The notes below the pieces were generated by a model. The model had not been told where the DNA came from. It saw nothing but the letters and a program-made list of their open reading frames with translations, and did not search any database. A stretch of 32,000 nt of DNA from positions 1-32,000 of the forward strand of contig CAVRAI010000009.1 of the NCBI GenBank assembly GCA_963718915.1. The letters are read 5' to 3'. Both the position numbers and the translations under genes were made by a program. This stretch comes from an uncultured Chloroflexia bacterium. Its GTDB lineage: Bacteria; Chloroflexota; Ktedonobacteria; Ktedonobacterales; JADMIN01. Each line of letters opens with the position of its first letter. Position 1 is the first letter of the stretch. Below are positions 146 through 3,100 of the stretch, one piece after another.

Positions 146-3100
146 TTACGCCTGCTGCTGCTGCTGTTCGCGGACGAGGCGGCGCAGCACAGCGGGCAGG
201 ATGCCGCCCTGGCGGTAGTATTCGATATCCACCGGACCGTCGAGGCGGGCAATCGCCGTGAAATCGAAGGTCGAGCCATCCTCGCGGGTGGCGCGAATCG
301 TGATCTCCTGATGTGGCTTCAACGCGCCGTCGATACCCTCGATATCGAAGGTCTCGCGCCCGGTGAGGCCAAGCGACTCGCGGCTCTCGCCCGGCTTGAA
401 CTGGAGCGGCAGGACGCCCATGCCGACGAGATTGCTGCGGTGGATGCGCTCGTAGCTTTCCGCGAGGGTGGCGCGGATGCCCAGCAACATCGGCCCCTTC
501 GCCGCCCAGTCGCGCGAGCTACCCGAGCCGTACTCCTTGCCCGCGATGACCAGCAGCGGCGTGCCCTCCGTCTGGTAGCGCATCGAGGCGTCGAAGATGG
601 TCATCTGTTCGCCTGTGGTCAGGTACTCGGTCCAGTAGCCCTCTTTGCCTGGCGTCAACTGATTGCGCAGACGGATATTGCCAAAGGTGCCGCGCATCAT
701 CACTTCGTGGTTGCCGCGCCGCGAGCCATAGCTGTTGAAGTCGCGGACCGAGACGTCGTGCTCACGTAGATACTGCCCGGCGGGGCTATCTGCGGAGAAC
801 GAGCCAGCGGGCGAGATGTGGTCGGTCGTGACGGAGTCGCCCACCGAGACGAGCACCCGCGCGCCACGAATCGCGCCGAGTGGCTTCGGCTCCAGCGACA
901 TGCCCTCGAAGAACGGCGGCCGTCGCACATAGGTGCTGGCCTCGTCCCAGGCGAAGAGGCCACCCTCTGGAACCGGCAGCGCGCGCCAGCGGTCGTCGCC
1001 GTCGAAGACATGCGCGTACTCTTTGGTGAAGATATCTGGCGTGACCACTCGCGACATCGTCTCCTGAACCTCCCGCTGCGAGGGCCAGATGTCGCGCAGG
1101 TAGACAGGCTGGCCGTTGGGGTCTTCGCCCAGCGGATCATTGGTCAGGTCGATGTCCGTCGTTCCGGCAAGGGCATAGGCCACTACCAGCGGCGGCGAGG
1201 CGAGGTAGGACGCGCGCACCTGCGGATGGATGCGTCCCTCGAAGTTGCGGTTGCCGCTGAGCACCGAGACGACCACCAGATCGTTATCGCGCACAGCCTC
1301 AGCCACCGGCTCTGGCAAGGGGCCGCTGTTACCGATGCAGTTGTGTACCGCGACCGTGCCGGCGATGAAGGCGTGTTGTTCTTCAACTGACAGGTCGAAG
1401 ACTGTACGCTTGCCAACTGATCGACTGTCAATCACTTGGAGCGCAAGTGTCGGCAGCGCCAGCGATTCCTTCTCAACACAGTAGCGTTTTGTAGAAGGCG
1501 TCTCCCCACGCGCCTGGAGTGGCGTGAACCATTCGCGCGCGCCGATCTGGGTGAGTAGCTCGGCTGGTGAAGGGAAACCGCACGAATCGCGGTGCAACGG
1601 CTGGAACTTTCGGGCGGATTCCTGTGGCAGCCGCGAGAAGCGATCATGGCCCTTGAGCAATGAGTAGTGTGGGAAGACCGCCGTCTCACGCTCCAGCAAC
1701 TGAGTAGCTGCCGCATGACGCGCCCGCGAGAATGCCAGCGTAGGCTGTTCCACGCGCAATTCTTCCAGGCGAGTAGCCATCCACAGACGCTGCTGGTGGA
1801 TGTTCTCTATCGTCCTCCAATAGACCGCAGCCGCACTGGCGCGTAGTGACTTATCCACGCAATAGCGGAATCCCACCCGCTCGATAAAGGACAGGCCATC
1901 CGCCAGGATGAGACGCACCTCGACTCGTGGAATACCATCCTGTGCGGCTGGATACGAGGACGCCGCACGGCGGACAGGGTACTCGTAGACTTTTGCGCCA
2001 TCGGTATTCACACCGCAGCGCTCCAGAAGCTCCACGATACTGTCCATAACCTGTTTGAGCCGCTCGACGTGCTCTGGCATGGCGCTCTGCGAATAGGCAG
2101 GCGTCTCTAGAGATGCCTCATCCTCGCTCTCGCCCCAGCCGTGCAACGTTGGCGCATGGCCATCGGCGCCAAAGACACCGCCCAGGAATTCGCGCACGAC
2201 GGCTACCGGGCAACGCGCCTCCAGCACAAACGCGGGCAGTGAGGGCGCCTGTGAGATACGCCGCCCGATACGCACACCAGGAAGCGCCGTAATGGCTCGC
2301 GTCAGTTCCATCGGCAAGACGATAGACCATTTGCGGTCGTCGTAGCGCGTCGCGGCTGGGCGATAGCCTGTGAGCAACTCGATGTCGTTGAGCGCGACCT
2401 CACGATCCACCGCCTGGCCGACATTCATGCGCCCCTGTCCGCCGACGCTGATCGACCCATCGCTGAGCAGGTGGCCAACCAGCCGCGCAAACGTGAGCGT
2501 GCGCTGGCGCTCCTGAGGTGTCGCCATCGTGAATGTCAGGTCGCCCGCGTGTAGCGAATAGCCAATCTCATCGGCGCTCGGCTCATCCAGCGGCGCTTCC
2601 AGGCCAACGACAATGCGGTCCCGATTCAGTTCAAGCTGGTCCGCGCGCACCCAGCGACCGTCCGCGCACAGCAGTTCGTGGTCTGGAGTGCAGACCAGCG
2701 TGCGGCCATCCTGCAAGGTGAGTGAGATACACTCGCGCTCGCCCTGCGCCATCATCTCGGATTGCCTCGTCATGCTCAACGTTCCGTTTGCATTGGGAGC
2801 GAACAGGGTTGCTCCGCCTGCCCCTGGCAACTCTTCGATACGCCGCGACGTGCCATTGGCGAGGAGCACAGGCGTTCCCTCGGCGATACAGGTGGTACAC
2901 CCATAGCCGACAGTATGGAATCCGAGTGCCTCTAAGAATGGCGTCAATTCTGCTGTATTGAGATAGTCTGTCACAACGCGGGAGCCAGGGGCGAGGCTCG
3001 TCTTGACATGCGGGTGTGTCTTCAGTCCGCGCTCGACGGCATGCTTCGCCAGCAGACCGGCGCCAATCATCACCGAGGGGTTCGAGGTGTTGGTGCAGCT

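Follow-up and report, generated by a model that had tools for sequence, protein, structure and literature searches.

An Aconitase Gene Interrupted by an Intein

The sequence analyzed here, referred to as the window, is a 32,000-nt stretch of DNA from an uncultured Chloroflexia bacterium of the order Ktedonobacterales (assembly GCA_963718915.1, contig CAVRAI010000009.1, positions 1 to 32,000 of the forward strand). At its left end, the longest open reading frame (ORF) runs on the minus strand (146..4519; 1457 residues counted from a GTG codon) and encodes the aconitase AcnA, with an in-frame insert of 517 residues, an intein, placed between GCTT and CIGNSG. The ATG at 4510, with AGGAG located 8 nt upstream, is the most probable true start of acnA and gives a precursor of 1454 residues. 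Public collections contain this exact precursor sequence, in a cluster whose members carry the name 'aconitate hydratase AcnA [Ktedonobacterales bacterium]'. The features of the locus, with flanking aconitase segments denoted as exteins and cysteines numbered relative to the splice junctions (−3, 1 and +1), are as follows:

146..4510, minus strand: acnA precursor gene, 1454 residues plus stop codon, a continuous ORF
2891..4510, minus strand: N-extein, 540 residues ending in ...HTVGYGCTT and including the first ligand, Cys472
3095..3097, minus strand: codon of Cys472, first cluster ligand by alignment to IRP1, within ITSCTNTSNP
2897..2899, minus strand: Cys−3 (residue 538), second Fe-S ligand (equivalent of IRP1 Cys503) and candidate disulfide partner of Cys1
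1340..2890, minus strand: intein, 517 residues (precursor residues 541-1057), starting with CIAEGTPVLL and ending with GTVAVHN
2888..2890, minus strand: intein Cys1, predicted nucleophile of the first splicing step
2678..2689, minus strand: block B TxxH (T68-P-D-H71; CTPDH is intein 67-71)
1481..2590, minus strand: predicted endonuclease region (approximately intein 101-470), with a two-motif LAGLIDADG core and a conserved helical extension (321-470)
2450..2482, minus strand: LAGLIDADG motif 1, LVGHLLSDGSI (intein 137-147; Asp144)
2156..2188, minus strand: LAGLIDADG motif 2, FLGGVFGADGH (intein 235-245; Asp243)
1340..1402, minus strand: blocks F and G, VFDLSVEEQHAFIAGTVAVHN (Asp499, His516, Asn517), matched by TIGR01443
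1337..1339, minus strand: Cys+1 (residue 1058), predicted nucleophile of the second splicing step and third Fe-S ligand
146..1339, minus strand: C-extein, 397 residues, through the stop codon

A first-pass annotation of the window had described a 517-residue insert at 1340-2890 in a 1454-residue product and expected its removal to restore the aconitase motif. The coordinates, lengths and motifs it gave are all correct, although it did not state that the gene lies on the minus strand, and the expectation of a clean insertion is borne out by profile comparisons. The unspliced precursor matched the NCBIfam models NF006757 (score 1352.8) and TIGR01341 (1298.9), in both cases in two stretches. Deletion of the intein in silico restored the uninterrupted motif and yielded a 937-residue protein that matches TIGR01341, the AcnA equivalog model, with a score of 1315.6 against a cut-off of 945, in a single stretch over model positions 5-875/876; thus, the insertion is clean.

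The Insert Is a Class 1 Intein

Profile and structure comparisons confirm that the insert is a class 1 intein, as the first-pass annotation had proposed, and show the Hint fold; the residues the insert retains predict active splicing. The Pfam profile PF14890 (Intein_splicing) matched insert residues 9-517 with 46.0 bits against a cut-off of 35.8, the NCBIfam profiles TIGR01445 (intein_Nterm; 27.9 vs. a cut-off of 24.5) and TIGR01443 (intein_Cterm; 18.2 vs. 15.6) were likewise above threshold, and all the conserved intein blocks are present. In a sequence search against the PDB, the first 95 and the last 24 residues of the insert aligned to the Mtu RecA mini-intein (E = 6.6e-8). The AlphaFold2 model of the intein, for which the input alignment consisted of 43 family members, has a mean predicted local distance difference test (pLDDT) score of 91.4 and a predicted template modeling (pTM) score of 0.92. 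The top matches of this model in a Foldseek search against the PDB were all endonuclease-bearing inteins, namely, 7qss (TliVMA, E = 1.7e-12) followed by 1vde, 1dq3, and 2cw7; mini-inteins and the hedgehog Hint domain were also matched, with template modeling scores (TM[target]) of 0.55-0.62 and root-mean-square deviations of 1.5-2.1 Å.

The Intein Separates Two Ligands of the Iron-Sulfur Cluster

The junction region of the spliced AcnA was aligned to human IRP1 (2b3x), with ITSCTNTSNP falling on ITSCTNTSNP and the splice-junction motif on GYGCMTCIGNS. In this alignment (the 2b3x chain index differs by one from that of UniProt), precursor residues Cys472, Cys538, and Cys1058 correspond to Cys437, Cys503, and Cys506 of IRP1, the established ligands of its [4Fe-4S] cluster. 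In IRP1 numbering, the intein is located between Thr505 and Cys506, that is, between the second and third ligands, in agreement with the earlier proposal that it interrupts the Fe-S ligand motif and that the +1 cysteine is itself a ligand. Because 517 residues separate the second and third ligands, the unspliced precursor would be unable to bind the cluster. The choice of the site reflects the usual preference of inteins for invariant active-site sequences.

A Predicted Homing Endonuclease Nested within the Splicing Domain

Both motif content and predicted fold support the assignment of the middle domain of the intein as a two-motif LAGLIDADG homing endonuclease with predicted cutting activity. 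The two motifs are 98 residues apart, and in the AlphaFold2 model, D144 and D243 are located at the C-terminal ends of helices 125-144 and 229-243, respectively, the same arrangement as in LAGLIDADG enzymes, where two motifs each end a long helix. Foldseek also matched the free LAGLIDADG enzyme I-Tsp061I (2dch; E = 8.7e-5, TM[target] 0.56, 231 columns). Since Pfam LAGLIDADG profiles give no match to the middle domain even at E <= 1, the assignment rests on the motifs and the predicted fold, the latter supporting the intact-looking endonuclease with two LAGLIDADG motifs that the first-pass annotation had recognized. In a relative of the intein with 31% identity (P0242), the equivalent region does match Pfam LAGLIDADG_3.

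The second LAGLIDADG half-domain is followed by a helical region (intein 321-470; window ~1481-1930, minus strand) with helices at 345-381 and 387-401. Residues 321-360 are the best-conserved 40-residue stretch of the whole intein, with a mean column identity of 0.91. The helical region, for which no counterpart was identified, may be a DNA-recognition module.

A Widespread Family of Aconitase Inteins

A protein search with the intein alone produced 291 matches. Among the best 120 of these, the host sequence, where carried, was always that of aconitase, with intein identities of 48-88%, and the source names included Ktedonobacterales, Acidobacteriota, Eisenbacteria, Steroidobacteraceae, Omnitrophica, Gemmataceae, Myxococcota, and Thaumarchaeota. 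A genome scan covering one genome per species identified 49 loci in 49 species-level genomes from at least seven phyla and two domains, all of them metagenome-assembled genomes (MAGs), with the best match in a Ktedonobacterales MAG (89% identity). The hosts are Ktedonobacteria and other Chloroflexota, Acidobacteriota, Eisenbacteria, Gammaproteobacteria, Verrucomicrobiota, Polyangiaceae, and Gemmataceae among bacteria, and Nitrososphaerota among archaea; Limnocylindria and Candidatus Udaeobacter are represented as well. The element is, then, not a one-off but belongs to a distinct, widespread aconitase-specific intein family in many soil bacterial phyla and Nitrososphaerota archaea. Public gene calls of intein-bearing aconitases are often truncated or frameshifted (e.g., P0007, P0008, and P0075).

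Both junctions were readable in 41 of the 49 loci, and the insertion site was identical in all 41: GCT[T/S] | C...HN | CIGNSGPL. The sequence from position −3 to position 1 is C-T-T-C in 38 copies and C-T-S-C in the other 3. Intein length varies between 515 and 526 residues in 40 of the loci, the remaining one (L038) measuring 476 residues. Cys1, Thr68, His71, Asp499, His516, Asn517, Cys+1, Cys−3, and D144 are each kept in 41/41 copies and D243 in 40/41, and 98 invariant columns are spread over the whole length of the intein. At the DNA level, the 7-nt sequence TGCATCG (minus strand) opens both the intein of the window (2884-2890), where it starts Cys-Ile-Ala, and the C-extein (1333-1339), where it starts Cys-Ile-Gly. 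This short direct repeat, which makes the DNA-level insertion point ambiguous by 7 nt, is kept in nearly all loci (L001-L048) and may be a microhomology used in homing or merely a consequence of the usual C[ILV] intein start.

Aconitase inteins share 56-89% identity with one another (pairwise comparison of 33 full-length genome loci) and at least 48% with the window intein in the protein search. When 1.84 billion cluster representatives were searched exhaustively with HMMER, 1186 relatives were recovered, among which the nearest outside aconitase are full-length inteins, 30-39% identical, in PolB, RpoB (Rpb2 domain 6), and ribonucleotide reductase. Because these are the closest outside relatives, the aconitase intein traces back to the ordinary intein pool, from which it colonized a new host gene.

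Selection and Evolutionary History

We compared the window locus with its closest relative (L001). The ratio of nonsynonymous to synonymous substitution rates (dN/dS) was 0.10 for the whole intein, 0.17 for the N-terminal and 0.06 for the C-terminal Hint segment, 0.096 for the endonuclease/middle domain, and 0.045 for the exteins. Both the intein and the exteins are under purifying selection. On the exteins this selection is strong, which implies continued production of the host enzyme and, in turn, functional splicing. When synonymous rates of intein and extein were compared, differences in both directions occurred, with most of the values saturated.

Two Ktedonobacterales sequences (P0121 and P0122) represent intein-free acnA alleles that are 87-89% identical to the window extein, with the motif uninterrupted. 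In the extein tree, these alleles are sister to the pair of the window and L001, within a larger intein-bearing clade, and other empty alleles are interspersed. Intein-free sites read ...GGCTGCACAACC|TGCATCGGCAAC... (L050) and TTCCATACCGTCGGCTATGGCTGCACAACC|TGCATCGGCAACAGCGGTCCATTGCCGGAG (L050 or L051). The nesting of empty alleles among intein-bearing ones requires repeated gain or precise loss, the pattern of a homing cycle. The first-pass annotation had allowed that the insert might prove to be a conserved, non-splicing domain of orthologous aconitases; in these close orthologs, the segment is absent.

Within clades, the intein changes faster than the extein (89% vs. 97% identity). Between clades, it is often the intein that is more alike (72% vs. 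55% in the comparison with Pyrinomonadaceae, for example), as is true of 72% of 528 pairs. These values suggest that the common ancestor of the inteins is younger than that of their hosts and are consistent with invasion after the divergence of the clades. As proof of intein transfer across phyla, the figure of 72% of the pairs was downgraded, given that the neighbor-joining trees of the two are congruent at the level of clades.

Certain placements in these trees deserve mention in their own right. In two MAGs labeled Proteobacteria (L026 and L038), the aconitase exteins nest inside the Ktedonobacteria clade, and the copy from Candidatus Udaeobacter (L031) nests within the Eisenbacteria clade in the extein and intein trees alike. 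These placements point to either transfer of the whole intein-bearing gene or binning errors.

A Probable Mobile Element and Its Alternatives

The element described here is very probably a full-length class 1 intein in which a two-motif LAGLIDADG endonuclease is nested and which persists in Ktedonobacterales AcnA as a selfish mobile element rather than as a regulator of its host. From the conserved residues, we infer the following course of events. acnA would be translated as the 1454-residue precursor, in which the two Hint halves (approximately residues 1-100 and 471-517) would fold together; Cys1, aided by T68, H71, and D499, would attack the carbonyl of Thr(−1); Cys+1 would take over the N-extein, and Asn517 would cyclize. 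The joining of the exteins would then produce the 937-residue AcnA with its native motif, which only at this point would become competent for cluster binding. The freed intein would cut intein-free acnA alleles at their highly conserved sequence and would be copied into them by repair, completing the homing cycle.

Several observations weigh against such a mobile element. Splicing and endonuclease activity are both inferred, and Pfam LAGLIDADG profiles do not match the middle domain. The neighbor-joining trees of inteins and exteins are largely congruent for the major clades, so that much of the history of the intein could be vertical or could reflect transfer of the whole gene, and the compressed range of intein identities could stem in part from rate heterogeneity among sites rather than from recent transfer. 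No copy on a potential vector turned up in collections of phages, plasmids, and viral contigs. The agreement of the trees by clade and the unmatched profiles would also be expected of an intein that is fixed and no longer mobile, with active splicing, an inactive or co-opted endonuclease, and a history of vertical descent and whole-acnA transfer only; the replacement of Asp243 by Ala in one copy, the His found at this position in a relative (P0095), and the unusually large extra helical region (residues 321-470) fit this alternative as well. We nevertheless consider loss of mobility unlikely. The catalytic aspartates are kept (D144 in 41/41 and D243 in 40/41 copies), dN/dS in the endonuclease region (~0.1) is as low as in the splicing domain, and the intein is patchily present and absent among alleles that are 87-97% identical. 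Furthermore, decaying endonucleases usually shrink to leave mini-inteins, yet the length of 515-526 residues is maintained in 40/41 loci (476 in L038). That there is no intein at all, the insert being a lineage-specific, non-splicing aconitase domain or the gene a disrupted pseudogene, is extremely improbable and effectively refuted: the intein profile cut-offs are passed, the fold is that of a Hint domain with an endonuclease, the splicing residues are invariant, and the ORF is intact. Moreover, 517 residues between two ligands are incompatible with a working enzyme unless removed, yet dN/dS of the exteins is 0.045.

The remaining alternative is that splicing is conditional and benefits the host, which would keep the intein as a redox or iron gate acting after translation: the oxidant-labile aconitase would be kept as an inert precursor and freed when reducing conditions or iron return. 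Among the Foldseek matches of the aconitase intein is PDB entry 3nzm, reportedly the engineered Ssp DnaE 'redox trap' of Callahan et al. 2011. An Ssp DnaE intein with a cysteine engineered at position −3 is trapped by a disulfide to Cys1, the native Cys−3/Cys1 disulfide of the Pyrococcus abyssi MoaA intein allows splicing only when reduced (PMC3922620, PMC10663303), and the Pab PolII intein is controlled by a Cys1-Cys+1 disulfide. The Cys−3/Cys1 redox trap mentioned in the first-pass annotation is, accordingly, correct for the engineered Ssp DnaE and native MoaA inteins (PMC3922620, PMC10663303). In the aconitase intein, Cys−3, Cys1, and Cys+1 are invariant (41/41), the spacing of positions −3 and 1 equals that of the splicing-blocking disulfide in both these proteins, and the PolII intein offers a precedent for control through Cys1 and Cys+1. 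In addition, the hosts are soil organisms, and the intein is kept, with conserved sequence, across many lineages. By analogy, formation of a disulfide in the aconitase precursor is chemically plausible.

These same cysteines, on the other hand, have other reasons to be invariant, Cys−3 and Cys+1 being obligatory ligands of every aconitase and Cys1 the standard nucleophile. Whenever an intein starting with Cys1 is inserted before the second Cys of a host CxxC motif, the Cys−3/Cys1/Cys+1 layout follows automatically and is thus no evidence of an evolved sensor. Close relatives thrive without the intein, an argument against a role of importance to the host, and the conserved endonuclease points to selection for mobility. 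An evolved regulatory role, in which Cys−3, Cys1, and Cys+1 would form reversible disulfides or bind metal and splicing would stall under oxidative stress or iron limitation, therefore seems unlikely. If such gating nonetheless occurs, soil bacteria and archaea would store an oxidant-sensitive enzyme of the tricarboxylic acid (TCA) cycle in an inert form and release it post-translationally when conditions improve, a benefit that would help explain the retention of the intein across phyla.

Base Composition and Genomic Neighborhood

The first-pass annotation had remarked that the intein DNA looked less GC-rich than its flanks. With respect to its own exteins this is the case (61.8% vs. 65.4% GC; GC content at third codon positions [GC3] 0.69 vs. 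0.82), and the intein is less GC-rich than the exteins in 31 of 33 related loci too, with a mean difference of −8 points. The intein is not anomalous for the genome, however: the other genes in the window have a mean GC3 of 0.74 (sd 0.10), and the intein falls inside this range. Lower GC content as a mark of a foreign intein was rejected on this ground, GC3 lying within the spread of the neighboring genes. Rather, the aconitase exteins are the part located at the GC-rich end.

The neighborhood (6546-7739, 20933-22336, and 30470-31477, all on the minus strand) is ordinary chromosomal DNA. The window contains genes for two ABC-2 transporter pairs, an amidohydrolase, a universal stress protein, tyrosyl-tRNA synthetase, a thioredoxin-reductase-like flavoprotein, and an N6/N4 DNA methylase for which no restriction partner is evident; no further intein was seen among the window genes. 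Two ORFs, at 14864..15799 (minus strand) and 17442..17987 (plus strand), have GC contents of 0.50-0.53 and GC3 of ~0.50, compared with ~0.74 in the neighbors, and yielded no Pfam match. The region 14864-17987 may be a horizontally acquired island.

An Apparently Unreported Host for a Known Kind of Element

A full-text literature search, with InBase outside the search, found no description of an aconitase intein, and aconitase is absent from the main text, the supplement aside, of the prokaryotic intein census of Novikova et al. (PMC4760082). NCBIfam release 20.0 includes 'intein-containing' exception models for RtcB, a radical SAM protein, and RecA and none for aconitase; such a model would have ranked first in the profile search with the precursor. 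Public names of the relatives (P0001-P0120 and the P0386 cluster) are 'aconitate hydratase AcnA', 'aconitase family protein', 'hypothetical protein', and '3-isopropylmalate dehydratase small subunit', none of which flags an intein. The suspicion voiced in the first-pass annotation that aconitase is not a catalogued intein host thus agrees with the literature searched and with NCBIfam. As far as the literature, public annotation, and NCBIfam were checked, the widespread aconitase intein family is unreported, whereas inteins of this kind are well known.

According to the above census, inteins are heavily biased toward proteins of replication, repair, and nucleotide metabolism, with more than 75-83% of them in COG categories L and F (PMC4760082). 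The finding of an intact, widespread intein in a core enzyme of the TCA cycle broadens the range of known hosts and offers a natural case of a splice junction and a cofactor-binding site built on the same cysteines. It raises the question of whether disulfide control of splicing, so far demonstrated for a handful of inteins, arises generally as a side effect of insertion into CxxC metal sites or has been put to use as a regulatory device. The endonuclease is a candidate new meganuclease with a predicted target of roughly 20-30 bp in a universally conserved gene, and a curated 'intein-containing AcnA' model would improve the annotation of soil MAGs.

Comparison with Known Inteins

The best structural matches of the aconitase intein, PI-SceI, PI-PfuI, PI-TkoII, and TliVMA (1vde, 1dq3, 2cw7, and 7qss, respectively), have the same class 1 chemistry that is predicted here, based on Cys1, TxxH, the block F Asp, His-Asn, and a nucleophile at +1. 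Their Hint domain is likewise interrupted by a LAGLIDADG endonuclease with two motifs, and they, too, occupy an invariant motif in the active site of the host. They differ in residing in an ATPase or polymerase rather than in an Fe-S enzyme of the TCA cycle, share 11-13% sequence identity with the aconitase intein, and, unlike the latter, lack the extra conserved helical region (321-470); the missing Pfam LAGLIDADG match is a further difference. Among inteins of solved structure, the Mtu RecA intein (PI-MtuI) is closest in sequence to the splicing domain, to which it is ~35% identical in the N-terminal 95 residues. It begins with C-L-A-E-G-T, as against C-I-A-E-G-T in the aconitase intein, and ends with V-V-V-H-N, but differs in its RecA host, insertion site, and endonuclease region. 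Metagenomic inteins of PolB, RpoB, and ribonucleotide reductase (P0242, P0258, P0299, and others) can be aligned over all 517 residues, while differing in host and site, and the aconitase copies cluster tightly apart from them.

With regard to the proposed regulation, the P. abyssi MoaA and engineered Ssp DnaE inteins resemble the aconitase intein in that Cys−3 and Cys1 form a CxxC pair, and MoaA, like aconitase, is described as an oxygen-sensitive enzyme (PMC10663303). In these inteins, the disulfide and redox control have been demonstrated, whereas the likeness of the aconitase intein is one of residue spacing; in the latter, however, Cys−3 and Cys+1 themselves ligate the cluster of the mature enzyme. 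The closest conceptual precedent is the mycobacterial SufB intein, whose splicing is sensitive to oxidative and nitrosative stress (Topilina et al. 2015, as cited in PMC7765530). Here, too, an oxidant-responsive intein is part of the cellular iron-sulfur economy, but SufB builds clusters and uses none at the insertion site, and its intein belongs to another family and occupies another site.

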